This document shows, piece after piece, positions 7,321 to 63,451 of a stretch of 64,000 nt of DNA; the first letter of the stretch is position 1, and the number at the start of each line of letters is the position of its first letter. The notes under the pieces are model-generated. The model saw only the letters and a program-made list of their open reading frames with translations. It did no database searches and was not told where the DNA came from. The position numbers and the translations under genes are program-made. Source of the stretch: Deltaproteobacteria bacterium (lineage in GTDB: Bacteria > Desulfobacterota > GWC2-55-46 > DRQE01); contig JAJRSM010000044.1 of NCBI GenBank assembly GCA_024278765.1, positions 5,972 through 69,971 on the forward strand. Reading direction: 5' to 3'.

Positions 7321-8868
7321 ATGAACTTTGAAGGACTCTTTATCTACGATATGGCCAATAATCATCAGGGCGATCTTGGACATGGCCTGAGGATAATAAA
7401 AGATTTTGCCAAGGTCTCCAGTGAAAAAAGCGTACGAGGGGCTATGAAGTTCCAGTACAGGCAGCTTGCGACCTTTATCCACCCTGACTACAGGGACTAC
7501 GAGGGCAATAAGCATCTCTCAAGGTTTATCTCGACCGAGCTGTCTTCGGAGGATTACGGCGTACTTGCAGCCAGCGCAAAGGAGCAGGGGCTGGTAACGA
7601 TATCAACGCCTTTTGATGAAGAGTCGGTTGATCTAATAGAAAAGCTCAGGATAGATATAATAAAGATAGCCAGTTGCTCGGCGCAGGACTGGCCTTTACT
7701 TGAGCGCGTAGCCCTTGCCGGTAAACCTGTGATCTGCTCGACAGCAGGGCTTAATATTACGCAGATAGATGATATCGTAAGCTTCTTTGAGAAGCACGGC
7801 ACAGAGTTCGCTCTGATGCACTGCGTTGCGATCTATCCGACGCCCTTTGATAAGCTTGCGTTGAATCAGATAAAATTGCTGTCGCGTCGTTATCCGCAGG
7901 TTACAATCGGTTTTTCTACGCATGAAGATCCGGATTGCCTCGATGCCGTTAAGATCGCTTACGCAAAAGGTGCGAGGATATTCGAGAGGCATGTCGGGGT
8001 CAATACCGATAAGTATAAGCTTAACGGGTATTCCTCAACGCCTGAGCAGGTAGCTAGCTGGATAGATTCTTATAAAGAAACACTGGACGGTTGCGGCCCT
8101 TCCGGGCGTGCACCGGTTAGCCAGGAGGAAGAGGCGTCTTTACAGTCTCTTTCGCGCGGTGTCTTTTTGAAAAATCCGGTCGCAAAGGGCGAGGAGATTA
8201 AAAGGGATAATGTCGTCTTCTCTATGCCGATCTTAAAAGGCCAGCTAAAGAGCGGGCTCTGGGCTGACGGGCTTATAGCGGATAAAGGTTACAGCGCGGC
8301 AGAGCCGGTGCCTGCGAGCCTTCGTGATATTTCAATGAGCGATCAGGATACAGTTAACCGCACAATCTTGCAAGTCAAGGGTATGCTTAATAACGCCAAG
8401 ATTTTTCTCGGTGATGACTGCTCGGTAGAGCTTTCGCATCACTACGGCTTGGACCGTTTCCGAGAGTTCGGTGCCGTGATAATTGATTGCATAAACAGGG
8501 ACTACTGCAAGAAGCTGATAATACAGCTTCCTCGTCAGAAGCATCCTTATCATTATCATAAAAAGAAGGAAGAGACCTTTCAGGTCCTAAGCGGCAGCGT
8601 CGAGGTCGAGCTGGAGGGCGAGATGCGTACAATGCTTCCGGGCGATAAGTGTCTTGTAGAGCGCGATAAGTGGCACAAGTTCCAGACCCTGCACGGTGTG
8701 ATCTTTGAAGAGGTCTCGACGACGCACTTTAATAATGATTCTTTTTACGAAGACCCTCTTATCAGCGAGATCCCGAGGGAATCGAGGAAGACAAAGATAG
8801 ATCTCGGGCTAAGGTTACAGATGAACTCCGAGCTGCTTGAAGAAGATGATAAAAGTAATTGTCTTTGA
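7321..8868 (+). CDS. NeuB-family nonulosonate (sialic/KDN/Pse-type) synthase with a C-terminal SAF domain and an additional C-terminal cupin domain.
   Basis: A TIM-barrel NeuB core (HCVAIYPTP, GFSTHE) and SAF region are followed by an extra roughly 150-aa cupin (HYHKKKEETFQVLSGSVEVELEGE...GDKCLVERDKWHKF). Confidence 0.75.
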   Translation: MNFEGLFIYDMANNHQGDLGHGLRIIKDFAKVSSEKSVRGAMKFQYRQLATFIHPDYRDYEGNKHLSRFISTELSSEDYGVLAASAKEQGLVTISTPFDEESVDLIEKLRIDIIKIASCSAQDWPLLERVALAGKPVICSTAGLNITQIDDIVSFFEKHGTEFALMHCVAIYPTPFDKLALNQIKLLSRRYPQVTIGFSTHEDPDCLDAVKIAYAKGARIFERHVGVNTDKYKLNGYSSTPEQVASWIDSYKETLDGCGPSGRAPVSQEEEASLQSLSRGVFLKNPVAKGEEIKRDNVVFSMPILKGQLKSGLWADGLIADKGYSAAEPVPASLRDISMSDQDTVNRTILQVKGMLNNAKIFLGDDCSVELSHHYGLDRFREFGAVIIDCINRDYCKKLIIQLPRQKHPYHYHKKKEETFQVLSGSVEVELEGEMRTMLPGDKCLVERDKWHKFQTLHGVIFEEVSTTHFNNDSFYEDPLISEIPRESRKTKIDLGLRLQMNSELLEEDDKSNCL

Positions 8869-9505
8869 TTTTGACGGGACTATTATAGATTCTAATCAGC
8901 TTAAATATGATGCCTTCTTTCGTATCTTTGAGTATGATAAAAGATATAAAAAAATCGTCAAAGACGTGCTTGATCGTTCACGAGAAGAGACTCGTTTTTC
9001 TATCATAGAGCGTATTCTTAGAATTTTCCAACAAGATTTTCCCGGCATCTTACTGGAAGGTGATATAGGTGAGGTCTCACTCTTATATGCCGCTAAGTAT
9101 AACGATATTGTCGAATCTGCGGCTTCAATTTGTCCCGAGATAAGTGGTGCGTCTGATGCTCTTGATTTTTTATTTAGACGCTATCCGCTATACATAAACT
9201 CAGCTACTCCGCTTGAGCCGCTCAGGCGGATTATATCCGAGCGATCGCTGGATGGTTATTTTGTGGATATCTATGGAGCTCCAAGGGCAAAGATTGAAAA
9301 TCTGTCTGAGATATTGTCTAAAGAGAGTGTCGCTGGGAGTGAAATATTAGTCGTTGGTGATGGTGCTGGAGACCTAAAGTCGGCGTTATACTTTAGCGCA
9401 GCTTTTGTAGGTGTTCGCAATGACTTTAATAGATCTTTGGAGTGGAAAAAAGATATGGTTGATGACTTGAGAACATTACCCGATCTGGTTACTTCCATGA
9501 GCTAA
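8837..9505 (+). CDS. HAD-superfamily phosphatase or hydrolase.
   Basis: The N-terminal VIVFDFDGTIIDS (DxDGT) motif and a late VVGDGAGDL motif are HAD signatures. Confidence 0.75.
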   Translation: MKKMIKVIVFDFDGTIIDSNQLKYDAFFRIFEYDKRYKKIVKDVLDRSREETRFSIIERILRIFQQDFPGILLEGDIGEVSLLYAAKYNDIVESAASICPEISGASDALDFLFRRYPLYINSATPLEPLRRIISERSLDGYFVDIYGAPRAKIENLSEILSKESVAGSEILVVGDGAGDLKSALYFSAAFVGVRNDFNRSLEWKKDMVDDLRTLPDLVTSMS

Positions 9506-9532: not shown

Positions 9533-11209
9533 GTGTTTTTCAAGGCCGTATATAAAAGTGAGTCTTTGTCTGTGAATGAAGCTTATATATTAAATAAAGA
9601 TCGGTCAAAGATAACATTACCTTTGCTTATTGTCATTGTACTTGTAATTATGGCTGGTTTTTTCTTGCGCAGCTATAAGCTCTCTGCCGACCTTCCGTAT
9701 AAGGATTTAGGCCCGACTTGGGTTTTTGTCACCGACGAGGGTGCTTACCCGTATAGCGCTGCACATAAAGTTAAGTATGGTTCATGGCGCGTTGAAGATA
9801 CCTACTATGACGGTTGGACTATACGAGGCTATCAACTATGGGTTGAACAGTTTTTCAAGGGCGGAGGCGTTAACCTTACTTCGGCTCGCTTTGCCTCTGT
9901 AGTTGCTTTTACTCTTGCTTTGTTTTTCTTTGCCTTTGCACTTGCAAGGTATACGTCTTCATCTATGTCTGTTTTTTTTACAATATTTGCCGCTTCTAAT
10001 TTTCTTTTGCTTATGTGGTCCAGGTTTGCGAGCCCCTATGCGGTAAGCCTGCTGCCTATGGCTATTATATTTGCATGTTTTCTTATAGCAATGGCCAAAA
10101 AGAGTTACGCAGCCCTGATAACTGCTGGTGTTGTCACTTTCATTGCCTTTACGATAAAAGAGACCTCTATTATTTATCCCTCGATAGTTGTTATCTCGAT
10201 TATCATTGGCGATTGGCTTTATAGTGGTATGCCTCTTCATAGAGCAATCTTCAATAAGAAGGTATTGGTCTACTTGTTGGCATTTTTAATTCCTATGGCT
10301 CTTTATTATATTTTTTTTCTTAATCCAAATGCTACCGAGTGGTGGAATAGTTCTGCAAAACTTCAAAAGGATACGGTTGCTTCTATAGCCAACCTGAACA
10401 ATGCTGTTGCAGAAAATGTCGCAAAGCCGAATGCCTTTTATAAGTTATTTTTTAAGTATCTGGGGGCAAGACATATCCTGGCGTTATGGTTTCTTGCAGC
10501 CATAGGCATGGTAGTAGAAGGTTTACGTTATTTGTTCGCGCCCGGCTACAGGCGTAGCCTCTGGTCTTTGAGTTCTCTATTTATGGCCCTTTGGTTTTTA
10601 GGAATGTCTGTGGGGATGCTTGTTTTAAGGCTTGGCGGAGGCGTGGCAGAGCACTGGAATGTACTTTTTATCCTGCCTGTCTGTTATTTCGGCGCTGTGA
10701 CAGTGGCAAGTCTCTGGGAGATCGGCAAAGGTGCTTTTCTCCGTAGAGGTAGGACTGTAATGGTAGTAGCTGTCTTTTTGACAGCCATTGTTGTCTTCTC
10801 TGATATGAACAGGTACTACGCGTGGGCCACTACGCCGCTTGAAGATGAGGGTTTAAATTTTGCCGCCTCTGATATAGCAGAAAAGATTATGGAAAGGAGA
10901 GAGGGCTCCACTACGATTGTTATGATCGATGCAACATTCACTCTTTTGAGAGAAGAAAAAATTAATACGATTTTTGTGCGTAATTTCAACTTGAAAGATC
11001 TTCCGCGTATCTATAAACGCTGGAAACCCGGGTATATAGTCGTGCCAGATGATGGGGGTACTTTGTATTCTGTTGCTGTCATGCAAGAGCTTGCAGAAAG
11101 AGGGTTTATAGTAAAGCCGATAAATGAGACCTATCTTGGTTTTTTTGATCACAGAGATTTGAGCATGGTTACTTACGAACTTGCATATAGTCCTGCTGAT
11201 AAAACTTAA
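9533..11209 (+). CDS. GT-C fold membrane glycosyltransferase (GT39/ArnT-like), paralog 2.
   Basis: About 11 TM helices precede a soluble C-terminal domain, and the architecture matches ORFs 4461 and 12785. Confidence 0.55.
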   Translation: MFFKAVYKSESLSVNEAYILNKDRSKITLPLLIVIVLVIMAGFFLRSYKLSADLPYKDLGPTWVFVTDEGAYPYSAAHKVKYGSWRVEDTYYDGWTIRGYQLWVEQFFKGGGVNLTSARFASVVAFTLALFFFAFALARYTSSSMSVFFTIFAASNFLLLMWSRFASPYAVSLLPMAIIFACFLIAMAKKSYAALITAGVVTFIAFTIKETSIIYPSIVVISIIIGDWLYSGMPLHRAIFNKKVLVYLLAFLIPMALYYIFFLNPNATEWWNSSAKLQKDTVASIANLNNAVAENVAKPNAFYKLFFKYLGARHILALWFLAAIGMVVEGLRYLFAPGYRRSLWSLSSLFMALWFLGMSVGMLVLRLGGGVAEHWNVLFILPVCYFGAVTVASLWEIGKGAFLRRGRTVMVVAVFLTAIVVFSDMNRYYAWATTPLEDEGLNFAASDIAEKIMERREGSTTIVMIDATFTLLREEKINTIFVRNFNLKDLPRIYKRWKPGYIVVPDDGGTLYSVAVMQELAERGFIVKPINETYLGFFDHRDLSMVTYELAYSPADKT

Positions 11210-12791
11210 TGGTTTGTTCTGTAGCTTTAAGTTTTTTACTCTAATCTCAAAAAGGTTATTTTTCATGTTTATGTTGTTCGGAGGTGATTTTAAATTTTCA
11301 AGTAAGATTGTGCTGCCATGGTTGTGTTTCGTTGTCTTTGCATTTTTTCTGGCTTTTATTGGAGTAATTAGTCTTGCTGCATTATTGATTCTGACAATAT
11401 GTCCTTCTCTGGCTCTGGTTTTTTTATTTTCTCCCAAGGTTGGTTTAATGGTTATTGTGTTAATAAGGACCTCCCTTGATGCCTTTGCTCAAAAAATAAT
11501 ATTGGAGTCTCTTGGGAATACCTACTTTAATCTACAAATGATACTCACTGTGGAGATTATCGTTATATTAAGTGTCATGGTATTTATTTTCTTTATAACA
11601 AGAAAAGCTGAATTTAAAAACTGGTCGTTCCTCTTGGCCGCCGGAGCTTTTTTACTGTATTGTCTGATCTCTGTATTCTTCAGTTCTGATCTTTTTAATG
11701 CCTTGCATGCGTATCTTAGGTATTTGACATGGATACTTCTGATGGTATCGATCTTGATCTTTGTGAAAACAAAAGCAGATATTGACCGTTTTATGGTAGT
11801 AGGAATGATGGCTGCTATACTGCCTGTTTTAAGCGTTTTATGGGATATAGGTAATGGCGCAACCCTTGGGAGTCATTATGGCATTAATGATATTAAAGGC
11901 GTATATGACAATCCGCCTAAAATGGCAAGCGTACTTTTTGCTGTATTGCCGTTTTCAATATTTAAGGTTGAGCAGTCTTTGCAGACAAAGGGTAAGTGGG
12001 GTTGGGAGCGGCTTTCATTGTTTCTTCTTCCAGTTATCTTTATAGGCGTTTTATATACATATTACAGGGCTGTATGGTTAGCCGTTATATCTTCTTTAGC
12101 AATCACAACACTGTATTACATTAAAACTTCCAGACTGTATTTTATTATTTTTATTGTTTTATTATCTTTGTTTGTCTGGCAAAATATTGATCATATCAGG
12201 TTTAAGATGAGAGATTCGCCTTTGCAGTTGATCGAGAAGAAGATGGATGTTCTTTTAAAATTTGTTCAAGTGGAGAAGAAGATGGATATTCCTTTAAAAT
12301 TTGTTCAAGTGGAACATGAAGTCCTTGACTACGGTTCAGGGCGTCTGAGGATCTGGAGCAATATTGTTAATGCCTGGCTTGATGCGCCTATATATAAAAA
12401 AGTCTTCGGTTTCGGCATGTCTTCATCGGTTGAAATGTCGGGGCGCACGAATAAAGCGGGGATTATATCCAATGCGCACAATGATTTCCTTGCACTCTTG
12501 ATAAACCAGGGGGTATTGGGGCTGGGGCTTTTCTTTTGGCTGGTCTATGAAATATTAAGGCCTATACTGGTGCTTTTGAGGAGGGCTAAGGACCCATATT
12601 ATAGATGTCTAGCCGTTGTCTCTTTTTCGTTGATCCTTGCTTGTTTTTTTCTGGCGATGACATTTTTATTGTTGCAAACAATGGCTGTGATGTTTTATGT
12701 TGCAATTTTCTTGGCTCTAACATTGGTAGCCTGTAATTTGAGTATTAAATCCTGTAACGACGATGATAAGGCAGGTACATGTAAGTGGTAG
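11181..12791 (+). CDS. O-antigen ligase (WaaL/Wzy_C) family membrane protein; the true start is probably an internal Met near 11266.
   Basis: The protein is polytopic with a large periplasmic loop and the conserved NAHNDFLALLINQGVLG motif (H-N-D-x-L). Confidence 0.7.
   Translation: MHIVLLIKLNGLFCSFKFFTLISKRLFFMFMLFGGDFKFSSKIVLPWLCFVVFAFFLAFIGVISLAALLILTICPSLALVFLFSPKVGLMVIVLIRTSLDAFAQKIILESLGNTYFNLQMILTVEIIVILSVMVFIFFITRKAEFKNWSFLLAAGAFLLYCLISVFFSSDLFNALHAYLRYLTWILLMVSILIFVKTKADIDRFMVVGMMAAILPVLSVLWDIGNGATLGSHYGINDIKGVYDNPPKMASVLFAVLPFSIFKVEQSLQTKGKWGWERLSLFLLPVIFIGVLYTYYRAVWLAVISSLAITTLYYIKTSRLYFIIFIVLLSLFVWQNIDHIRFKMRDSPLQLIEKKMDVLLKFVQVEKKMDIPLKFVQVEHEVLDYGSGRLRIWSNIVNAWLDAPIYKKVFGFGMSSSVEMSGRTNKAGIISNAHNDFLALLINQGVLGLGLFFWLVYEILRPILVLLRRAKDPYYRCLAVVSFSLILACFFLAMTFLLLQTMAVMFYVAIFLALTLVACNLSIKSCNDDDKAGTCKW
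12226..12310 (+). repeat. In-frame tandem duplication of 39 bp (two 13-codon units, EKKMDVLLKFVQV and EKKMDIPLKFVQV) inside the ligase gene.
   Basis: Two adjacent near-identical 39-nt units differing at three positions were read directly from the sequence. Confidence 0.8.
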
Positions 12792-25685: not shown

Positions 25686-26438
25686 ATGACTGATAAAAAT
25701 TCATTGAATCTTTTTAGAGACCTTGATTCGGGTGCTTTTAAAAAGAAATTTATTTGTGAACTGAACTATGAATACAAGCCTCAGTTCAGTGTATTGTCTG
25801 AATTTGCAAGAAACCTGCTGAGTTTGACTTCTCCAGGTGCTATTGTGCTTGATATTGGAGCAGGCCGTTGTCAATGGAAGCGTCTTTTTACCGATTGTAT
25901 GTATATTGGTGTAGATAATTGTGTTGGTGATGATCAGTGGGAGTATAGTGCACTGGATTGTGTCGCTGATATTGCGAACTTGCCGATAAAGAGCAATTCA
26001 GTTGATGTTGTTATTTGCATGGCCGTGCTTGGCCATGTTCCTGAGCCGGGAAGGATTATAAGAGAGGCATATAGAGTCTTAAAACCCGGGGGCAGCTTTT
26101 TTTCTTTAAGTGAATTTGCCAAGGCTGAACATCAGGTGCCTTATGACTTTGTCAGGTTAACTGAGTTTGCACTGAAAAAATATACTGAAGATAGCGGTTT
26201 CTCTGTTGTCGATATATATGGTTCCAATTCATTTTACACATCAATTCTTAATCTTATTGAAAACTATACATGGAAGGTTTCGTATGGAGGGGTGAAGGCG
26301 GTGGTAAGGTTCTTACTTAAATTACTAATAAAATCAGGGTTGTTTGGCTTGCTTTATTGTATGTCGTCACGTAAAAAGACTGATCAGAATAATTTATTCC
26401 CTGTTTATTTTCTTACGCAATGTAAAAAAAATAAATAA
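25686..26438 (+). CDS. Class I SAM-dependent methyltransferase.
   Basis: VLDIGAGRCQW and VLKPGG motifs are present. Confidence 0.7.
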   Translation: MTDKNSLNLFRDLDSGAFKKKFICELNYEYKPQFSVLSEFARNLLSLTSPGAIVLDIGAGRCQWKRLFTDCMYIGVDNCVGDDQWEYSALDCVADIANLPIKSNSVDVVICMAVLGHVPEPGRIIREAYRVLKPGGSFFSLSEFAKAEHQVPYDFVRLTEFALKKYTEDSGFSVVDIYGSNSFYTSILNLIENYTWKVSYGGVKAVVRFLLKLLIKSGLFGLLYCMSSRKKTDQNNLFPVYFLTQCKKNK

Positions 26439-27847
26439 TGAAGACTATTATTCTTAGCATACCCTACACCATGTCGGCAAGGAATATTCTCAGGTCAGAT
26501 ATATTCAGGATCTTGAAGTCTAACTTCAAGGTAGTGGTACTAACGCCTCTTCATGCCGATAATAACTTCAGGCAAGAATTCGCCACTGACAATGTTGTGA
26601 TAAAAGACCTGCCGCGCGTTGAGTCTATTTTTTATAAGCTATTCAGAAGGACGCTTGATATTGTAGAGGGTTATTATTTTACCAGGAAGACCCGTATAGA
26701 GACGCTTCTGATACTTAGGGAATGTCTTAAAAAGACAAAACCTGTTACTTACTGGGTCAGGACGGCTATTGGTTGTTTATTTTCACCATTGCTCGGCACT
26801 CTGCGTACCTTGCAGGGGAGTTTTCTGCAATCTTCTTATTACGACCGCCTGTTTTCTGAGTATGACCCCGTACTCGTTTTCCTGACCCATCCTATAGCGA
26901 TTGAAGAGTTCGCGCCGGCTTTTTATGCTAAGAGGCTAGGCATAAAGTTGGCTGCCATGATACACAGCTGGGATAATGTAACCTCAAAGTCGGGAATAAG
27001 GACAGTTACGTCCAACAGGCCCGGGCGCATGCTACCTCTTGATTTTGATAAGGTCGTAGTATGGAATGATATTATACGTGAGGAACTTACCAGCTATTAC
27101 GGCTATGCAAAGGACGATGTCTCTGCCTTTGGTGTGCCTCAATTTGACTCTTATTATAATTATAAGCCATCATCGCGTAAAGATTTTTTTAAAAAAATAG
27201 GAGCAGACCCTGAAAAAAAACTCATACTCTACGCCGCAGGAAGTTCCTTCTTATTACCAAAACAGGATGAAGTTATAGATATTATCGTAAAGGCTATAAC
27301 TGATGATAAGTTTGCTGCGTCGTCCCAGTTACTTATTAGAGCGCATCCCGGGACGGATATGACTGCTTTACGTAATAAGTTTTCAGGTTGCGCGAAGGTC
27401 TTGTTTTCCGAGCCAGGTATCGCCAATGCAGCCCTGAGGTGCTCTAAGGGCTGGAAACCTGTTGACGGCACGCAGGCCGCTCTTGCCGATATACTTTCTC
27501 ACTGTGACGTTACGGTCAATGTCTCTTCCACGATGAGTCTTGATGCGGCAGTTTTTGATAAGCCAATTGTATGCGTAGGTCTGGACGGCTATAAAAACCT
27601 TCCTTATCACAAGTCTTTACTTAAACACTATGATTTTACTCACTATAAATATGTTATGGATACAGGAGGGGTAAAGCTTGCAAAAACCCCCGAAGAATTG
27701 ATAACATATATAAACGATTATCTACTTGATCCCTCGTTCGATAGCAGTGGCAGAAGAAAGATCAGAGAAGGGCTTTGCTATAACCCTGACGGTAAGGCAG
27801 GTGAGCGAATCGGCAGATATATCTGTGAGTTGGTAGGGGCTGTTTAA
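26438..27847 (+). CDS. Putative GT-B transferase of the CDP-glycerol glycerophosphotransferase/KpsC-like (Glyphos_transf-like) type.
   Basis: Weak motifs resemble the TagF family (KKLILYAAGSS, NVSSTMSLDAAVFDKPIV), the length is 469 aa, and a CMP-sugar synthetase gene lies directly downstream. Confidence 0.4.
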   Translation: MKTIILSIPYTMSARNILRSDIFRILKSNFKVVVLTPLHADNNFRQEFATDNVVIKDLPRVESIFYKLFRRTLDIVEGYYFTRKTRIETLLILRECLKKTKPVTYWVRTAIGCLFSPLLGTLRTLQGSFLQSSYYDRLFSEYDPVLVFLTHPIAIEEFAPAFYAKRLGIKLAAMIHSWDNVTSKSGIRTVTSNRPGRMLPLDFDKVVVWNDIIREELTSYYGYAKDDVSAFGVPQFDSYYNYKPSSRKDFFKKIGADPEKKLILYAAGSSFLLPKQDEVIDIIVKAITDDKFAASSQLLIRAHPGTDMTALRNKFSGCAKVLFSEPGIANAALRCSKGWKPVDGTQAALADILSHCDVTVNVSSTMSLDAAVFDKPIVCVGLDGYKNLPYHKSLLKHYDFTHYKYVMDTGGVKLAKTPEELITYINDYLLDPSFDSSGRRKIREGLCYNPDGKAGERIGRYICELVGAV

Positions 27848-27864
27848 TTATTAGTAACGAGATC

Positions 27865-28054
27865 TTAGGGTTAATAACTGCCCATGGCGGGTCGAAGGCT
27901 GCAAACAAGAACGGTGTTAGGTCTTTGACTGGAGACTTCGAATAATGAGTTTTGAGATTTTAGGGTTGATAACCGCCCATGGCGGGTCGAAGGCTGCAAA
28001 CTAGAATGGTGTTAGGTCTTTGACTGGAGACTTCGAATAATGAGTTTTGAGATT
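27865..28054 (+). repeat. Tandem repeat of two 95-bp units (27865-27959, 27960-28054), with a third unit continuing into the gene from 28055; each unit is the leader plus first about 17 codons of the downstream cytidylyltransferase gene. A 19-codon decoy ORF runs 27945-28004.
   Basis: The period is 95 bp with about 93% identity between units; the decoy reads MSFEILGLITAHGGSKAAN* against the real start MSFEILGLITARGGSKTV. Confidence 0.85.
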
Positions 28055-28765
28055 TTAGGGCTTATAACCGCCCGTGGCGGTTCAAAGACCGTTCCTAAGA
28101 AGAACATTAAGGATCTGGGGGGTAAGCCTCTGCTCGCCTATACCATTGAAGAGGCACGTAAGACAGGGCTAATTAGCAGGCTTATTATTAGCACTGACTG
28201 CGAGGAGATTGCAGCGGTTGCCATGGACTATGGCTGTGAAGTTCCTTTTATGAGGCCTTCCGAGTTTGCCGGCGATATGGTCCAGGATTTGCCTGTTTTT
28301 GAGCATGCTCTTAAGTGGCTTGAAAGGGAAGAGGGGTATAGCTCTGATATGGTCGTGCATCTGAGGCCCACCGCCCCGCTTCGCAGGGTTACGCATATAG
28401 AGGGCGCGATAAAGACGCTCATTGCTCACCCCGATGCCGACTCGGTGCGTTCGGTATGTTTAGCACCCAAGCATCCGCTAAAGATGTGGAGAATTGAAGG
28501 AGACCGGTTGGTCTCTTATATACCTGCCGAGGTAAGCGGAATTAAGGAGTCTTACAATTATCCTCGCCAGAAATTGCCGGAGGCTTACGTGCAGAACGGA
28601 TCGGTCGATGTGATAAGGAGGAAGACTATTACCGATATGGGAACGATGAGTGGTGACCTTATAGTACCGTATGTGATGGAGGAGGAAGATTCTATTAATA
28701 TTGATACTTTCATGGACTTTGCTATGGCTGAGATCTTGCTGCGCGATAGGTTGGCCGAATTTTAA
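28040..28765 (+). CDS. Acylneuraminate (CMP-nonulosonate) cytidylyltransferase family protein.
   Basis: GLITARGGSKTVPKKNIKDLGGKPLLAYTI is the CMP-NeuAc/Pse/Leg/KDN synthetase N-terminal motif. Confidence 0.85.
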   Translation: MSFEILGLITARGGSKTVPKKNIKDLGGKPLLAYTIEEARKTGLISRLIISTDCEEIAAVAMDYGCEVPFMRPSEFAGDMVQDLPVFEHALKWLEREEGYSSDMVVHLRPTAPLRRVTHIEGAIKTLIAHPDADSVRSVCLAPKHPLKMWRIEGDRLVSYIPAEVSGIKESYNYPRQKLPEAYVQNGSVDVIRRKTITDMGTMSGDLIVPYVMEEEDSINIDTFMDFAMAEILLRDRLAEF

Positions 28766-28775
28766 GGGGTAAGTT

Positions 28776-29930
28776 ATGAGAATTGCTATCTCAACTTGCT
28801 CTATGGTTAGTTGTGACAAGGATTTTGCAGGGACAGGGCTCGGAGTTTATCTGGATAACCTGGTCACCTTCCTTCAGAAAGAAGCTTCTGACGATCAGTT
28901 TTATATCTTTATGCCCGAGAGCCAGCGCCGATTTTTCAAAATAAAGCATAAAAACTTCAAAGCTATATATCTCAAGGAGTATACGAACAGGCTCATTCCA
29001 GGGCTTTTGTGGTACTTTTTTTTACTACCTTTGCTTTTGAAACGCTATAAGATAGATTGTCTGCATATACCTGACTTTAGAAGGTTTCCTTTGATAAAGG
29101 TATGTCCTATTGTCTTGACGATTCACGATATGACAAACTTTATAGTCAAAGGTCGTCTGACAACGACCAAGAAGATATATAGATATTTTATTAAGTATGT
29201 CTTCTCTAAATATGCAGACAGGATAGTGACCGTATCTGATAATACAAAGAAAGACGTTGTAAATGTACTCGGGATAGATCCGGCGAAGATTACCGTAGTT
29301 CATAACGGTGTCTCAAAAGAGTTTTGCGTGAGAGAGAGAAAAAGTGCTTTAAAGGAGCTTAAGTCCTTTGACCCACCTGAAAGGTCAATCCTTTACGTCT
29401 CACGGCTTGAGCATCCTTTGAAAAATCATATTACGCTGCTCAGGGCCTACGCAAGGTGCAAAGAAGAGAAAGATTTCGCTCATAAATTGATATTTATAGG
29501 TGAGAGGTGGAGCGGTCATGAGGCTATTTTTGTTGAAATAAAGAGGTTAGGGTTGGGCGGTGATGTCATTATGTTAGAGAAGATATCGTTTAAGGCCCTT
29601 ACTCGTTTTTATAATATAGCAGACCTGTTTGTATTTCCTTCTTTATATGAAGGGTTTGGACTGCCTGCGGTTGAGGCCCTTGCAAGCGGAGTGCCTGTTA
29701 TTGCCTCTGATACCTCTTCTTTAAAAGAGATCGTTGGCGGCTCAGGGCTACTCTTTAAGCCCGGAGATGACCTGAATTTATCTGAGCTGATATTAAAGGT
29801 TTTAGATGATAAAAACCTGCGTAGTGATATGATACAAAAAGGGCTTTCGCGCAGCTCCGAGTATTGTTGGAAGGCCGTGGCATCATCGATGTTAAGTGTC
29901 TATAGATCCAGCGCATCACGGGTTCAATAA
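28776..29930 (+). CDS. GT4 (GT-B fold) glycosyltransferase.
   Basis: The C-terminal FVFPSLYEGFGLPAVEALASGVPVIASD motif matches the EX7E region. Confidence 0.85.
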   Translation: MRIAISTCSMVSCDKDFAGTGLGVYLDNLVTFLQKEASDDQFYIFMPESQRRFFKIKHKNFKAIYLKEYTNRLIPGLLWYFFLLPLLLKRYKIDCLHIPDFRRFPLIKVCPIVLTIHDMTNFIVKGRLTTTKKIYRYFIKYVFSKYADRIVTVSDNTKKDVVNVLGIDPAKITVVHNGVSKEFCVRERKSALKELKSFDPPERSILYVSRLEHPLKNHITLLRAYARCKEEKDFAHKLIFIGERWSGHEAIFVEIKRLGLGGDVIMLEKISFKALTRFYNIADLFVFPSLYEGFGLPAVEALASGVPVIASDTSSLKEIVGGSGLLFKPGDDLNLSELILKVLDDKNLRSDMIQKGLSRSSEYCWKAVASSMLSVYRSSASRVQ

Positions 29931-29931
29931 G

Positions 29932-31407
29932 ATGAAGATAACCCTCATACTAATAGAGATAAGAAGCGATATTCCGGGCTTTACCGGCAATTATTATGAA
30001 GGCGTCGGGGCTGTCTCGGCGGCCTTGGAGGGTGCTGGTAATGAGGTGAGTTTCCTGCACCTGACGCGTACGATGGAGAGGGGCGAGTTCATAGCAAGGC
30101 TTGAGCAGGACCGGCCAGGTATGGTCGCCTTCTCGGCTATGACCAACGGCTTTCATTACGCCAAAGAGATGACCGGCTGGGTAAAGGAATATAGCAAGGA
30201 TGTGATCGTCCTTTGCGGTGGTATTCACGCAACGCTAGACCCTGAGGACGTCATTAAGGTCGGTGCTATCGACTACGTCTGCCGTGGCGAGGGCGAAGAT
30301 CCTATGGTAGAACTTTGCGATGCGCTTGATAATTGCAAGAGCCCTAATTATATCTCCAATATATGGCTTCGAGATGGCAAGAAGGTAATAAGAAATAAGG
30401 TTCGTTCGACATATCAGGATCTGGACCGTTTTCCGCACCCTGATCGTGATATATTTGATTTTGATAATCTTCTGACGACCAAGGAGAGTTTTGCTACCTT
30501 TCTTGGGGGGCGAGGCTGTCCTTTTGCCTGTGCGTACTGTGCCAACCACGGAATGAAGGACCTTTATCCGAATAAGGGGCAGTATATAAGGTTTAAGACC
30601 GTAGACCGCCTAATGGACGAGATAGAGGTTGTTTTAAAGCGTTATCCTTATATTAAATATGTTGCTTTCTCCGATGACATTTTGCCTCTCAAAATCGACT
30701 GGCTGCGCGAGTTCGCCGATAAATACAAGGCGCGTATAAATCGTCCTTTTAAGTGTAATATTAACCCTATGCTCGTAAAAGACGAGACGATATCTCTTCT
30801 GCGTGCCGCCGGGTGTACGATGGTGGAGATCGGCGTTGAGAGCGGTAACGAGCGGATCAGGCGCGAGGTCTTAAACCGTAAGATCACCAACGAGGGGATG
30901 CTCAAGGCGACGCAGTTAATTCGCAGCTATGGGCTTAAGATTGCTACCTATAATATGGTCGGCGTGCCGGGTGAGAGTATTCGTGAGATACGTGATACTA
31001 TAAAGCTCAACGGCCAGATCGGGCCAGAGAAGATGTATGCATTTATCTTTTATCCTTACCCGGGTACGCGTTTACATGCATTTTGCAAGAAGGAAGGACT
31101 CTTGACCTCTTCAAGGTTTGATACCTACGCAGAGGGTACGATACTTAAGAGCAAGACCCTCACGGAAAAAGAGGTCGTCTTTGGCCACAGGTTTTTCAAG
31201 AGCTTTGCCAAGCTATATAAGAAGGCCAACAAGATGCCAAGCCCTCTTAATAAGATTTTGATGAAGTTACTGGATATTATTATTGTTGCAAAGCTGCCGT
31301 ACGGGCTTTTGATATTTACTCACTCGGTACTATACAGGACTGCGAGCTTCATGTACCTGAAGTTTGGCAGATACATCTATAACAGGCAAAAGGCATACTA
31401 CGGATGA
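29932..31407 (+). CDS. B12-binding domain radical SAM enzyme (class B radical SAM, methyltransferase-like).
   Basis: An N-terminal cobalamin-binding-like domain (VIVLCGGIHATLDPED) is followed by a radical SAM core (GGRGCPFACAYC). Confidence 0.75.
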   Translation: MKITLILIEIRSDIPGFTGNYYEGVGAVSAALEGAGNEVSFLHLTRTMERGEFIARLEQDRPGMVAFSAMTNGFHYAKEMTGWVKEYSKDVIVLCGGIHATLDPEDVIKVGAIDYVCRGEGEDPMVELCDALDNCKSPNYISNIWLRDGKKVIRNKVRSTYQDLDRFPHPDRDIFDFDNLLTTKESFATFLGGRGCPFACAYCANHGMKDLYPNKGQYIRFKTVDRLMDEIEVVLKRYPYIKYVAFSDDILPLKIDWLREFADKYKARINRPFKCNINPMLVKDETISLLRAAGCTMVEIGVESGNERIRREVLNRKITNEGMLKATQLIRSYGLKIATYNMVGVPGESIREIRDTIKLNGQIGPEKMYAFIFYPYPGTRLHAFCKKEGLLTSSRFDTYAEGTILKSKTLTEKEVVFGHRFFKSFAKLYKKANKMPSPLNKILMKLLDIIIVAKLPYGLLIFTHSVLYRTASFMYLKFGRYIYNRQKAYYG

Positions 31408-58656: not shown

Positions 58657-59211
58657 TTATATTTTATTCTTCTCAACCTCGTCCTTAGGAGGTCTGACTA
58701 TCCAAGCACCGGGCTGTTTAAATCTCTTCGATATTATGGCAGAGGTCTTTTTGGCATCCGTTGCTGTATTGAAAAAACCAACCCTTACTCTATGCCAGTT
58801 AACATCGTCCTTTATAAAGGTCGTTACGTAAGCATTATAGCCGGCACTATCTATGGCTCGCTCTAGACGTCTTGCATATTTTTCGCCGTGAAATGACGCT
58901 ACGTGTATAGCATATACCCCACGCTTTACAGCCTTCGCCGTAGCGGCCTTCGCCGTGGCAGCTTTAGCTGGGGCAGCTAAAGCTGGGGCAGCTAAAGCTG
59001 GGGCCGTAGTAGTCTGAGTGCTAGCAGCAGGCTTTGTCGGGTCAGTTACACGGATGCTTTTGCGTACAACCATGTCATCGGTCTCAGGCGTCTCGCCTCC
59101 AGATGATAGAAAAAATATTATCGCCCCACCGCTTATAATTATCAACGCAGCGATGATCAGGAAAAGCCGACTATTCTTTGCCTTTGAATTGGTATTTAAT
59201 CTATTGTTCAC
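58657..59211 (-). CDS. SPOR-domain peptidoglycan-binding protein with an N-terminal TM anchor and an Ala/Pro-rich repeat linker.
   Basis: The C-terminal SPOR fold (YAIHVASFHGEKYARRL...WHRVRVGFF) and the linker APALAAPALAAPAKAATAKAATAKA are present. Confidence 0.8.
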   Translation of the reverse strand: MNNRLNTNSKAKNSRLFLIIAALIIISGGAIIFFLSSGGETPETDDMVVRKSIRVTDPTKPAASTQTTTAPALAAPALAAPAKAATAKAATAKAVKRGVYAIHVASFHGEKYARRLERAIDSAGYNAYVTTFIKDDVNWHRVRVGFFNTATDAKKTSAIISKRFKQPGAWIVRPPKDEVEKNKI

Positions 59212-59399: not shown

Positions 59400-62111
59400 C
59401 TATCTTACATACAAGCATTTGCTCGCTGCAGTCCTGGTATCCATATTCCTACCCCTATTGGTATGATCATCTACCTCAGCGGCGCAACCTAGCATACGAC
59501 CAAAAAGGAAGGTCGTAAATGCCGCTGTCTCGACTTCTTCATCTGAGATTGTTCCCTCGATAAATGGTTTCCAGACGATCTTCAGTAGTATTACGGCGAT
59601 AACAGCATCGATGTTTACGCAGTAAACGTCTTTCGTAACCTTTGACTCAAATAGTGAGTTCACTAAATTGCTATAGAAGTCCAGGAAGATATTGTATATA
59701 CCCTTCTCCTCAAAAAGCTCGGTCACGAAACGCTCGCGCGGATCATAGTTAACCGGCTTACCTTTAAAGATCGGATGATTAACGCAAGGTATCTTCTTAT
59801 ACTCGATATTACCGATTGACTTCTGCTCGGCCTTATAAGCCTTGTACCAGTCGGCGTATTTACTTGAGATAGCCTTAAGGTCAAGGCCGTGCTTAGAGCT
59901 TGCCGGGTCTTTCAGCCCCTCTTCCTTGAACCTCTCGATAAGGAATGCAATTGCCTCATAACCATTACCACCGTGAGCAAAGCCGGTATGAGTCATAAAG
60001 CCGATCATGGCCTTATTAATCTGTACACGCTCGGTCTCAGCCGGACCGTCGGCACTTACCCCGCCCTTTGCTCCCTGAGCAGATATCGTACCTGGGCCGT
60101 TGGTGATGATAAGCCCTAAGAGCATTGAGAACTCAAAGAGCTCGTCGTCTGTTGGTTTGCGTCCGATCAAAGCCAAGAAGGCCGTCTCGGTAAAGCCCCA
60201 GTCGGCTACAAGCTCTTTATTATCAATACCACAAAAGCTGGTATCGGTATGCTTCTTTTCAGCAACGCTACAGCCGACCATCGTCGAGAAGATCCTTGAG
60301 TGCCACGAAAGTGTAGTAAGCGTTGCTTTACTGATATCCTTGGTCATATAAGCGTTCCATGCAAGGGTCGTCCAGATAGCGGCCAAAAGCGCACTACTTG
60401 ACGGCTTACCATCAGCGGCTTCTATTACAAAGTTAACAAATACCGAGGGCCTGTCCATACCTTCCAGAGCATCTTTAAGCATAATGCCTCTGGCACATGG
60501 GTTAGGATAGGAAAGAGCGGCCTTATTGTCATCGGTGAGTTCTTTTAAAATACCGGAGTAATCAAAGTCCTCGCTAGGGTTCACAAGGCCTGTGTGCTGA
60601 AACTTGTCGATAAGTATCTTGGTCGTTGCGATTGAGTCCTTGACCTTACCCTTACCAACGATTGCAACAGCCGCTGAGAGTACGGTATTTGGGGAGTTGC
60701 CATTTTCGCGTGCGGCATTGGCAGCGATAAGCGAAATATCGTTATTGTGATTTACAAAAGAGTTCAGAGCGATATTGGCAAGCCTTTTGCCATATGCATC
60801 CGGATACTCTTTAAGAAGCGAGAATACGAGGTTTTCTTCTAAGGTGCGCTTTGAGGCCTCTAGTATTGAGAGTCCGTGGATCTTGGAGACCTGGGTCTTT
60901 GGATCCATCATTGAAGCACCACTTGTATCCTTCATTGTCTGGCGAGGAAGCTGCGCTCCCTTCTGCCTCGATATTACTTCAATCTGCTCACCATAAGGAG
61001 ATATCGCCTTGATAGGCTGTACATCCAGTTCCTTAGGAAGCTTATAACCCGCAGTGCTTGAGAACCAACACTTAAGCGAGAGGTCTCCTCTGGGCGCAAA
61101 ATCAGAGTCTATGCCGTTTAGTTTCTGTACAGCCGACAATGCCTCAGGGATATAGGCGATATTAACAACAACAGCACCCTTCTTGGAGACTACTGGATTC
61201 TCAGGTGTGTAGATGTCTTTGACACCAAAGTAATCCATAAACCATTTTTCTTTGGCCTTTGCGTCATCCCCTGAGCCAGCCAGACTTCCTGCGTGACCAC
61301 AGGCCTTGGAGAGTCTTGCCTTCCAGCGACCGACTATGCAGGCAACCGTTGGTTTTGTAATGTTAAGATCATGCTCGTAGTACCCACCAGGCTCTACGTA
61401 TATGACGGCTGAAGTAGACCTGTCGTCATTGTCAAGAGCGTGGAAGAACTCGGCTGGGCCGTAATGAATGTACACGTCCTTACCGCTTGATAGGCTAGTC
61501 GTAGTTCCCCAGCCCTGCGTTAAGAGATAAACAGCAATTGTTGTAGTGAAGTTACCTGAGTTGGAAAAAAGCGCAACCGAACCCTTAACCAGAGACTCTT
61601 TAGGATTACTCCCTCCTAGAGCTCCACCAATGCGAACGTTATTCCACGCATCAGCTATTCCCAAGCAATTTGCACCGAAGACATCTACGCCATTTGTCTG
61701 ACATATCGCACGTATTGTCCTACTGTCGCTTACCGCGACCTTTTCAGTAAGGATAACGACCTTTTTAAGGTCCGGGTTAAAGCGTACCGCCTCGGCCACA
61801 CCGTCTTTAACACCGCTTGGCGGAAGATAGACGACCAGGGTATTGAATTTATGACCGGCCTCCATGCCTTCTTTGATCGAGTTATAGACCGGTATGGGAC
61901 CGGCCTTTGTCTCAAGCTTTTGTCCTGATTTACCTGGACCTGTTCCAAAGACTATGTTCTGCCCTGAGAACTCATGGCTAACAGGGGTAACCGTACGGCT
62001 CTCGTTGCCAAGGATATTAAGCACGCAGACCGTGTCTTCTTTTGTTGCCATCTCTGCCAGTGAATTAACACCTAAAAAGTATGGAAAACTCTTTACGCCC
62101 TCTTTATGCAT
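59400..62111 (-). CDS. aclA: ATP-citrate lyase alpha subunit (CoA-binding/phospho-His domain plus citrate synthase-like domain); at 903 aa it is unusually long.
   Basis: It contains an SCS-alpha-like domain with the catalytic His context ACGHAGSLAGSG and a C-terminal citrate-synthase-like domain, and it follows an ATP-grasp beta subunit gene. Confidence 0.75.
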   Translation of the reverse strand: MHKEGVKSFPYFLGVNSLAEMATKEDTVCVLNILGNESRTVTPVSHEFSGQNIVFGTGPGKSGQKLETKAGPIPVYNSIKEGMEAGHKFNTLVVYLPPSGVKDGVAEAVRFNPDLKKVVILTEKVAVSDSRTIRAICQTNGVDVFGANCLGIADAWNNVRIGGALGGSNPKESLVKGSVALFSNSGNFTTTIAVYLLTQGWGTTTSLSSGKDVYIHYGPAEFFHALDNDDRSTSAVIYVEPGGYYEHDLNITKPTVACIVGRWKARLSKACGHAGSLAGSGDDAKAKEKWFMDYFGVKDIYTPENPVVSKKGAVVVNIAYIPEALSAVQKLNGIDSDFAPRGDLSLKCWFSSTAGYKLPKELDVQPIKAISPYGEQIEVISRQKGAQLPRQTMKDTSGASMMDPKTQVSKIHGLSILEASKRTLEENLVFSLLKEYPDAYGKRLANIALNSFVNHNNDISLIAANAARENGNSPNTVLSAAVAIVGKGKVKDSIATTKILIDKFQHTGLVNPSEDFDYSGILKELTDDNKAALSYPNPCARGIMLKDALEGMDRPSVFVNFVIEAADGKPSSSALLAAIWTTLAWNAYMTKDISKATLTTLSWHSRIFSTMVGCSVAEKKHTDTSFCGIDNKELVADWGFTETAFLALIGRKPTDDELFEFSMLLGLIITNGPGTISAQGAKGGVSADGPAETERVQINKAMIGFMTHTGFAHGGNGYEAIAFLIERFKEEGLKDPASSKHGLDLKAISSKYADWYKAYKAEQKSIGNIEYKKIPCVNHPIFKGKPVNYDPRERFVTELFEEKGIYNIFLDFYSNLVNSLFESKVTKDVYCVNIDAVIAVILLKIVWKPFIEGTISDEEVETAAFTTFLFGRMLGCAAEVDDHTNRGRNMDTRTAASKCLYVR

Positions 62112-62158
62112 AACTCTTCCGTCCTATGTTTGTTTTTTAAAGTTCATTAAATATTTTT

Positions 62159-63451
62159 TTAAACAGATGCCATCTCTGGAGTCGCGCCTGTCATCTTCTT
62201 CTCCATCATTGCCGCACCTTCTTTTGCCATCCACTCATCGGCCCTGTGCGCGTAGTTAACTACCTCGCTCATGGCACTGTCATGGCCAAAGATCTTATAA
62301 GGCAGCTTTAACTGATCAAGCGTGTCCTTCATGTAATTAAGGCCACGAATCAGATTTGGCCCGCCTCTACCAACGACGACAAAGAGCGGGGTTGGCCCGT
62401 ACTCCTGGAAGTGTGATCGAAGGGCATCTGCCATTGCTCTGAAGGTCTCGTATATATCGGTATTATTGGCCTTACCACCGATTATAAAGAGCACGTTAGA
62501 TTGCTTGAGCCAGTACTTAAATACTATCCGTGAGATGTCATTCATCTTCGCGTATGGCGGGTTGCCACCAAAGTCAGATGATATCGTCGCCTTCTCACCA
62601 AGCAGCTCTGTTACCAGTGCGTTTGCTCCGCCGCCAAAGGTCGGTGCTGTTATCGTACCCTTTGGGTTAATTACAAAAACATCGCTCTGGCCCTGATAGG
62701 TTCTGAGCTGGTTGATCTCCTGCTCAAACTCCGAATAATCGGATGCAAAAAGATGGCTTGGTAGATCAAGCCTTGTCCATGCCGGGTCGTCTTGGTCAAA
62801 AGATCCTTTAAAGTCACAGGCAACAGGTGTGAGCCTGCCCTTCTTATTAGGTGACATGCGTATAGGATTAAGCTCCAGCATATTCATTCCGTAGTTGTTA
62901 TAAAGTGTCCATAGCTTTGGAAGGTTTTGAACCAGCGGGCTGATTAGAGCCTTTGGTGCGCCGAGTGCCTCCAGAGCATTAAGTACGTGATAGCTCTTAA
63001 GACCTGTAAGCGGATCAAAAGGCACTTCCTGAATCTTCTCAGGAGGCAGCTCTTCGATATCCACTCCGCCGTGATGGGTTATGGTCATCATCGGTGCGCG
63101 GTACTGTGTTGAATCTGAGATTGAAAAATATATTTCGTGCTCTGCTGGTACAGAGCCCTCGAAGGTAACGCCGTCGGCCTTTGCGCACTCATTGCCGACA
63201 ACATGCTCGGCAAAGTAAAGACGTTCTTTTTCCTCAAGCGCATGCGTTATATCCGTTGCGCGTCCGATAAGTCCTGATTTGCCTTTCTTACCAACGCCGC
63301 CTTTGAAGATAGGCTTGATAAAGACAGCTCCGCAATCATTGATGAGTTCCTTGATCTCATCCACACTTGCCTCTGGCCCTAAGACCTTGGCAACTGGATA
63401 ATCGACCTTTTTAAGAAGCTTCTGCCCCCAAAGTAGTCCTGTAAGTTGCAT
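62159..63451 (-). CDS. aclB: ATP-citrate lyase beta subunit (ATP-grasp, succinyl-CoA synthetase beta-like).
   Basis: An ATP-grasp N-terminus and an SCS-beta-like ligase C-terminus in 430 aa, directly upstream of aclA, support the call. Confidence 0.75.
   Translation of the reverse strand: MQLTGLLWGQKLLKKVDYPVAKVLGPEASVDEIKELINDCGAVFIKPIFKGGVGKKGKSGLIGRATDITHALEEKERLYFAEHVVGNECAKADGVTFEGSVPAEHEIYFSISDSTQYRAPMMTITHHGGVDIEELPPEKIQEVPFDPLTGLKSYHVLNALEALGAPKALISPLVQNLPKLWTLYNNYGMNMLELNPIRMSPNKKGRLTPVACDFKGSFDQDDPAWTRLDLPSHLFASDYSEFEQEINQLRTYQGQSDVFVINPKGTITAPTFGGGANALVTELLGEKATISSDFGGNPPYAKMNDISRIVFKYWLKQSNVLFIIGGKANNTDIYETFRAMADALRSHFQEYGPTPLFVVVGRGGPNLIRGLNYMKDTLDQLKLPYKIFGHDSAMSEVVNYAHRADEWMAKEGAAMMEKKMTGATPEMASV

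Follow-up and report, generated by a model that had tools for sequence, protein, structure and literature searches.

What is the origin, and what might be the use, of extra copies of a gene's own translation start standing in tandem in front of that gene? The question is raised by a cytidylyltransferase gene in the 64,000-nt stretch of DNA analysed here (the window), at which the leader, the start codon and the first codons recur at a period of 95 nt (Table 1).

The ORF behind the repeat matches PF02348 (CTP_transf_3) with 70.5 bits against a cut-off of 22.6 (E 2.3e-19) and has 7750 homologues, and all columns that are invariant among 20 relatives are present in it, the conserved N-terminal ARGGSK included; judged by its sequence, it is a genuine member of this family of CMP-sugar synthetases. 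The best NCBIfam model is PseF at 143 bits, which is below the cut-off of 205.7. The control over a "terminal sugar" that the earlier note ascribed to the enzyme is a role predicted from family membership only. The gene sits in a 42-kb polysaccharide cluster on the same strand that contains NeuB-like synthase, HAD phosphatase, aminotransferase, dehydratase, Wzy-like, flippase-like and initiating phosphotransferase genes, and that is flanked by the chromosomal housekeeping genes for MutS, GlnD, MiaB, BamB and XerD. The NeuB-family synthase and the HAD phosphatase are likely the source of the acidic sugar that the cytidylyltransferase is predicted to activate.

The array at the start of the cytidylyltransferase gene

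The only long-period array that Tandem Repeats Finder detected in the window spans 27859-28087 (period 95, 2.4 copies, 92% matches, score 388), and a repeat search placed three in-register 95-nt copies with starts at 27846, 27941 and 28036 and with 100, 89 and 60% identity to the first, bearing out the tandem duplication of leader and start region described in the earlier note. We refer to these copies as A, B and C. Copy A, the degraded outermost unit, begins 2 nt past the stop codon of the upstream glycosyltransferase (GT) gene and opens with ATT AGT AAC, where the version with a start codon reads ATG AGT TTT; its reading frame closes in TAATG, which overlaps the ATG of copy B. Copy B is a full decoy unit with an ORF of 19 codons (27945-28004, product MSFEILGLITAHGGSKAAN*) that is closed by the TAG stop at 28002-28004 because of an AAG-to-TAG change relative to copy A. 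The decoy ORF with an in-frame stop, which had been reported for the middle copy, is thus present, and 35 nt separate its stop from the real ATG. The 3' part of copy B doubles as the leader of the real gene, its GGAGAC being at 28026-28031. Copy C is the start of the real gene. Because no other unit runs on into the remainder of the gene, the Shine-Dalgarno (SD) motif and ATG of this last unit form the working start, and the true start of the cytidylyltransferase is the last ATG, at 28040. The statement that every unit carries both GGAGAC and ATG holds for two units (27931-27936 with 27945, and 28026-28031 with 28040) and fails for copy A, which has ATT.

Copies A and B are identical at 86 of 95 positions, with seven of the nine differences within the first 30 nt, while copy B and the gene agree at 45 of the first 52 nt (87%) and their identity falls sharply beyond. 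Counted in codons, identity between decoy and gene is clear for 17 codons, the length given in the earlier note, and is followed by weaker in-register similarity up to about codon 25 (~28114). Every unit, and also the gene, contains the palindrome CCGCC-NNN-GGCGG; besides the occurrence listed in Table 1, it is found at 27878-27890 (imperfect) and at 28068-28080.

Table 1 Features at and around the array in the window (positions on the forward numbering of the 64,000-nt stretch).
Feature	Position	Strand	Basis or remark
NeuB-family synthase fused to a cupin domain	7321-8868		Family match
HAD phosphatase, overlaps the NeuB-family synthase gene	8837-9505		Family match
Upstream glycosyltransferase (GT), 469 aa, Glyphos_transf / BFO_1060-like	26438-27847	+	Stop TAA 27845-27847
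Probable left edge of the first unit, native SD/spacer GGTAGGGGCTGTTTAATT	27830-27849	+	Weak evidence; now the 3' end of the GT gene
Copy A, degraded outermost unit	27850-27944	+	Alignment, repeat search
Copy B, full decoy unit	27945-28039	+	ATG at 27945, GGAGAC at 27931-27936
Palindrome CCGCC-NNN-GGCGG	27973-27985	.	Encodes the A-R/H-G-G motif; alignment columns 29-41 (near-)invariant
Part of the gene shared with the decoys	28040-28091	+	Unit-gene alignment
Cytidylyltransferase (CMP-sugar synthetase family), 241 aa	28040-28765	+	PF02348

By blastn, no second copy of the unit or of the leader was found in the 64-kb window or in the loci and flanks of the relatives described below, the only matches being the array itself and the orthologous gene starts. 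Tandem repeats of other kinds occur in the window: a 39-bp repeat at 12234-12313 (2.1 copies, 95% matches), in frame with 13 codons per unit, lies within a Wzy_C / O-antigen-ligase-like ORF (11181-12791), and a 15-bp repeat at 58957-59004 (3.2 copies, 93% matches) lies within a minus-strand ORF (58657-59211).

An array of this kind might be produced during assembly, by strain variants or read errors being concatenated in tandem. In agreement with this idea, the window apparently comes from an environmental assembly, the contig of one relative (L003, below) stops inside its array, and the units of another (L001) are 99% identical, with exact repeats of 196 nt. The window copies, however, differ from one another (nine mismatches in 95 positions for A against B, seven in 52 for B against the gene), and no exact repeat at period 95 exceeds 53 nt, so that the assembled path is unambiguous; in addition, homologous arrays that differ from the one in the window are present in three independent assemblies from other samples. 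An artefact is scarcely credible on this evidence, and the array is real.

Arrays in the closest relatives and a single start in the outgroup

The loci of the three closest relatives, L001, L002 and L003, encode cytidylyltransferases with 84-85% amino acid identity to that of the window, and each was seen once, in other samples (GCA_964493925.1, GCA_900491125.1 and JGI 3300003877, L003 being the JGI contig). In all three, a homologous array lies directly upstream of the orthologous gene. L001 has a degraded first copy, two full decoys and the real start (period 95, 3.1 copies, 99% matches in Tandem Repeats Finder), L002 has nothing but one leader between its degraded first copy and the real start, and L003 has at least two full decoys and a partial unit (period 94, 3.1 copies), with the contig ending inside the array. 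With N for the segment containing the first 17 codons, N' for its degraded counterpart at the outer end and L for the SD-bearing leader of 43 nt, the states can be written as N'-L-N in L002, N'-L-N-L-N in the window, N'-L-N-L-N-L-N in L001 and ...L-N-L-N-L-N in L003, corresponding to one, two, three and at least three leader segments, respectively. All units and the four gene starts align without gaps except for one 1-nt deletion. The clade is known from these four genomes, and how far the L001 count and the single leader of L002 can be relied on hinges on assembly quality: the L001 count is uncertain because its units are 99% identical with 196-nt exact repeats, and copy numbers taken from assemblies are in general lower bounds because the array breaks short-read assemblies, as at the contig end of L003 (L003:1-241).

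The most direct evidence for a change in copy number comes from L002 and L003, which are collinear over 6723 nt (L002:3233-9955, L003:242-6964) with 229 mismatches (96.6% identity) and which have a four-fold-site identity of 0.94-0.99 in three neighbouring genes, yet contain one and at least three leader segments, respectively. The locus therefore behaves as a variable-number tandem repeat (VNTR), and the copy-number change for which the earlier note had proposed to look is seen across the genomes compared, with one, three and at least three leader segments against two in the window. Between the window and the relatives, four-fold-site identity is ~0.5 in four genes, which is near saturation. 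The two outcomes that had been set against each other, a variable array and an old, invariant one, thus both apply in part, because the array is old, being shared by lineages with saturated synonymous sites, but is variable rather than invariant. Within a genome, the units are 90-100% identical, whereas the leaders are 57-72% identical between lineages.

Several features of these loci bear the marks of exchange within or next to the repeat. The first unit of L001 (L001_u1) is chimeric and is the same as the second and third units from column 27 on, beside the CCGCC-NNN-GGCGG palindrome; this switch suggests that gene conversion or exchange has left a junction within the repeat. Chimeric units of the relatives likewise switch partner beside the palindrome, which may be a crossover point. 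The first copy of L001 (1375-1469) is of the MSFEILG type, as in the other array-bearing genomes, and its decoys and working start (1470-1754) read (M)NYNILG, like the MNYEILA of the array-less outgroup (L085:5001-5060). The mismatches between L002 and L003 are dense in blocks that fall within the first 500 nt of the cytidylyltransferase gene, its 5' two thirds, and within the Glyco_transf_9 gene (1100-1600), and these blocks look like recombination tracts that start at or beside the array.

Gene content around the array also differs. An extra gene for a 461-aa B12-binding radical-SAM (rSAM) protein lies between the GT gene and the array in L001 (1-1359) and L002 (1409-3146), and the window is without it; this gene is a later insertion between GT and N' in these two relatives. 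In L002 it is preceded by an AT-rich spacer of 350 nt, and the L001 and L002 proteins are only 29% identical to the rSAM protein encoded behind the cytidylyltransferase gene in the outgroup. On the downstream side, the flanking gene is GT4 in some members of the clade and Glyco_transf_9 in others. As a separate observation on gene starts, the ORF at 29896-31407 of the window has a mechanically assigned GTG start at 29896 that overlaps the preceding gene; residue 13 pairs with the first methionine of the L002 orthologue (90% identity), so that translation probably begins at the ATG at 29932.

Outside the clade, an enzyme profile run against the GTDB species representatives gave 80 loci at 45-62% identity. 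None of these 80 more distant loci has a long-period repeat at the gene, and a search upstream of each for a second copy of the initial 75 nt of that gene gave no significant match; for the four clade members, the E-values of this test range from 7e-4 to 8e-16. An exact-pattern scan of metagenome contigs for the conserved leader motif gave no contig beyond one already found, and a protein search with the product of the decoy ORF gave no further members. The nearest outgroup (P0005, locus L085) is 62% identical in the enzyme and shares the unusual ITARGG motif. Here the stop codon of the orthologous GT gene is followed by 12 nt with GGAG and then by the ATG, as a single start. The window GT is 57% identical to the GT in front of this single-start gene and 59% identical to the GT of L002. 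Because L085 is array-less and has this layout, the ancestral state is a single start right behind the GT gene. Copy A of the window occupies the position of this ancestral start, with the junction between the GT gene and the first copy kept.

Origin and retention of the repeat unit

The sequence comparisons suggest that the unit is probably a plain tandem duplication of the region from about -20 to +75 around the start codon, a reading that fits because the end of the unit resembles the native upstream sequence while its middle resembles codons 20-25. The tests of these boundaries are weak and partly post hoc. In columns 58-75, the units match the gene in register at 48% of positions against 27 +/- 7% (p ~0.005, for a range chosen post hoc), and in the range set a priori, columns 53-75, the match has p = 0.03. 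Columns 76-95 do not match the gene. At the other end, the 20 nt upstream of copy A (GGTAGGGGCTGTTTAATT) resemble the end of the leader in L002 and L003 (GGCAGGGGCTTCGAATA), with a local score of 16 that 0.85% of window tiles reach, and in this alignment the TAA stop of the GT gene pairs with the GAA that precedes TAATG in the units. We also considered the whole leader as a diverged copy of codons 18-32 and rejected this option, as the similarity of unit and gene over columns 53-95 as a whole is not above that of shuffles and the signal is confined to columns 58-75.

The earlier note had alternatively proposed a scar of cassette exchange. On this view, an incoming gene with its own leader would have displaced a resident cytidylyltransferase allele through an illegitimate join just after the conserved segment coding for ITARGG, leaving the degraded first copy as what remains of the old allele, and unequal crossing-over between the remnant and the new start would later have made the extra units. 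This scenario would account for the sharp fall in similarity of decoy and gene past column 52 and for the absence of similarity above shuffles over columns 53-95 overall. It would also be in line with the variation in flanking genes (the extra B12-rSAM gene in L001 and L002, and GT4 versus Glyco_transf_9 downstream), with the divergence blocks of L002 and L003 that start at the array and with L001, in which the first copy is of the MSFEILG type and the working start is MNYNILG, like that of the outgroup. However, neither the in-register match of columns 58-75 to codons 20-25 nor the resemblance of the native sequence before copy A to the leader end is expected if the leader is foreign, and the location of the ancestral start, which in L085 is exactly at the position of copy A, is predicted by both models. 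An exchange scar is therefore less likely than a plain duplication as the origin of the array, and taken by itself we hold it to be distinctly unlikely. What stands of the proposal is that recombination junctions cluster at the array, while the unit itself fits a plain duplication.

Returning to plain duplication, we consider it rather likely that the array is a near-neutral minisatellite that arose by one such event and has been kept from collapse by its start-less outermost copy. In this model, a single tandem duplication of ~95 bp, covering some 20 nt in front of the start codon and the gene up to about codon 25, would have taken place in the common ancestor of the small clade, within the operon context of the GT and cytidylyltransferase genes. 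The outermost copy would have lost its start codon and later its SD context. From then on the array could not collapse to one copy, because recombination between N' and N would yield a gene without a proper start, and selection for the enzyme would keep N'-L-N as the floor state. Above this floor, unequal crossing-over, slippage and gene conversion would add, remove and homogenise units, by the general mechanism for unit gain, loss and homogenisation (PMC3899988). The internal copies would act as decoy starts that give rise to functionless peptides of 19-34 residues, with an effect on the expression of the real gene that is probably small and without detectable selection. Such a lock-in would account for the retention of the array in the four members, for their differing copy numbers, for the chimeric first units and for the clustering of the differences between copies A and B at the 5' end. 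An observation that speaks against a neutral reading is that all four clade members keep at least one extra copy and three of them keep more, which could reflect selection for the array.

Tests for function and comparison with known systems

A regulatory role had been suggested for the array, and our searches did not support it. In an Rfam scan of 27600-28300 at E <= 10, only chance-level matches were obtained, none inside the array and none better than E = 4, and in a scan of 27000-29000 there was neither a promoter-like site on the + strand within the array nor a terminator. Compared with its shuffles, the window unit is more stably folded (z = -2.7), its fold comprising a leader hairpin and a second hairpin across the AUG. 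For L001, L002 and L003, the folding z-scores of the units are ~0, no better than shuffles, and RNAalifold on seven units, which gave a covariation term of ~0 and several broken pairs, showed no conserved fold. We therefore rejected RNA structure as a clade-wide feature, the fold of a single unit being significant only in the window and without covariation, and we also rejected a leader-peptide attenuator or riboswitch-type RNA, for which Rfam match, terminator and conserved fold are all lacking.

Conservation of the leader between the window and L002/L003 is somewhat higher than that of four-fold sites (0.70-0.72 versus ~0.5), which speaks against neutrality. It is the last 20 nt of the leader, the SD and spacer, that are constrained: 12 of 19 columns are invariant, versus a fraction of 0.34 at four-fold sites (p = 0.008; three deep lineages). 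In the middle of the leader (the CTGC...GTGTTA blocks), constraint is not significant when compared with three-way invariance at four-fold sites (p = 0.12). A constraint limited to the SD and spacer would be expected of any ordinary working 5' UTR.

The positions of the decoy ORFs bear on a more specific proposal, in which the array is a heritable translational rheostat. Ribosomes loaded on a decoy would terminate near or over the next start and there re-initiate or block initiation, so that gain or loss of units would tune the amount of CMP-sugar synthetase and hence the capping of the surface glycan. An SD-like motif and a start codon are retained in each of the internal units. The frame of copy A closes in TAATG on the next start, the decoy ORFs of L001 (25 codons) leave 17 nt to the following start, and those of L003 (34 codons) run over it by 11 nt, which is the layout of coupled leader cistrons and of the ORFs in mycobacterial interspersed repetitive units (MIRUs; PMC12548453). 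Copy number differs between two closely related strains, and the array is retained in all four clade members, both as a rheostat would have it. On the other hand, the stop lies at a different position in each lineage, and in the window stop-start coupling is broken because copy A has no start and the 19-codon ORF of copy B, the decoy beside the real start, stops 35 nt early; coupling has thus not been maintained. Constraint is confined to the SD and spacer, no RNA structure is conserved, and, with the whole array in front of the working ATG, a change in copy number cannot switch the real ORF by frameshift. The intact SD and AUG of the internal units need no selection, since these units are young copies of a working start. 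We thus regard a rheostat as unlikely. A selected, recombination-driven dial, in which the number of decoy sites sets the translation rate of the CMP-sugar synthetase through delivery of or interference with ribosomes, appears to us highly doubtful; were it true, it would provide heritable, reversible variation in the acidic-sugar content of the surface polysaccharide and would represent minisatellite phase variation acting via translation initiation and not via reading frame or promoter. With the promoter, terminator, Rfam family and conserved fold not found and with coupling broken in the window, the array is most likely without a dedicated function.

The near-neutral minisatellite that we favour has counterparts among known repeats, each of which it resembles only in part. 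The unit is longer than 10 nt, its copies stand head to tail and are homogenised, and their number varies among related strains as judged from assemblies, as in minisatellites. Like bacterial minisatellites and VNTRs, the array consists of head-to-tail units of 94-95 nt in variable number and causes an assembly break. Unlike in these, the unit is a gene's own initiation region together with its first codons, each copy being a decoy start; minisatellites are otherwise anonymous intergenic sequences or in-frame coding repeats, whereas the unit length here is not a multiple of three.

Two systems share the arrangement of short ORFs around a downstream start. MIRUs are tandem units of less than 100 nt in intercistronic positions, with an ORF that ends at or over the downstream start (PMC12548453). 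The array, too, is intercistronic and lies at a start codon; in the window, the TAATG layout is seen only in the frame of copy A, which has no start codon. MIRUs, in contrast, are dispersed, apparently mobile and unrelated to the genes that flank them, while the array is confined to a single locus within the 64-kb window and its unit derives from the flanking gene, to the 5' end of which its first 52 nt are 87% identical; moreover, coupling is variable here and has been lost in the window. In leader-cistron or bicistronic designs, a short upstream ORF delivers ribosomes to the next cistron (PMC12548453). The decoys resemble these in being short ORFs with their own SD, with the SD of the next cistron in their 3' end and with a stop near the next AUG, but differ from them in that there is no evidence of selection or function and in that the stop, depending on lineage, is 35 or 17 nt before the next start or overlaps it by 11 nt.

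Two further comparisons arise from the kind of locus in which the array lies. Its attachment to a gene that modifies a surface polysaccharide recalls the simple-sequence-repeat (SSR) contingency loci in surface-glycan genes of Haemophilus, Neisseria and Campylobacter, in which units of 1-9 nt switch expression by frameshift or by promoter spacing and for which hypermutability is a feature. We rejected an assignment of the array to this class, given a unit of 95 nt that lies wholly upstream of the ATG and no promoter-like site on the + strand in the array. Gene remnants also occur at recombination junctions of polysaccharide loci such as those for O-antigen and capsule. As in these, a truncated, start-less 5' fragment is found here at a boundary of differing gene content; unlike them, it belongs to a tandem array with a conserved period, and its leader seems to derive from native sequence and not from a foreign allele. 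In the literature that we searched, we found no direct precedent for an array that is built from a gene's own initiation region and is conserved yet variable in copy number.

The locus thus offers a natural example, from uncultured bacteria, of a small tandem duplication across a start codon that may have become trapped and then have behaved like a minisatellite. In practical terms, the array breaks or confuses assemblies of this locus, and it could serve as a strain marker. If copy number were to tune translation, the array would constitute a new kind of contingency locus, generating surface-glycan variation via decoy initiation; nothing that we found requires this.

Two observations concern the organisms themselves. 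On the minus strand at 59400-63451, the window encodes a 903-aa protein with succinyl-CoA-ligase-alpha-like and citryl-CoA-lyase-like parts, next to a 430-aa beta-like subunit; the pair looks like an ATP-citrate-lyase-type enzyme and, as far as sequence likeness can tell, hints at an autotroph that uses the reverse TCA cycle. One of the close relatives comes from a hydrothermal vent metagenome.
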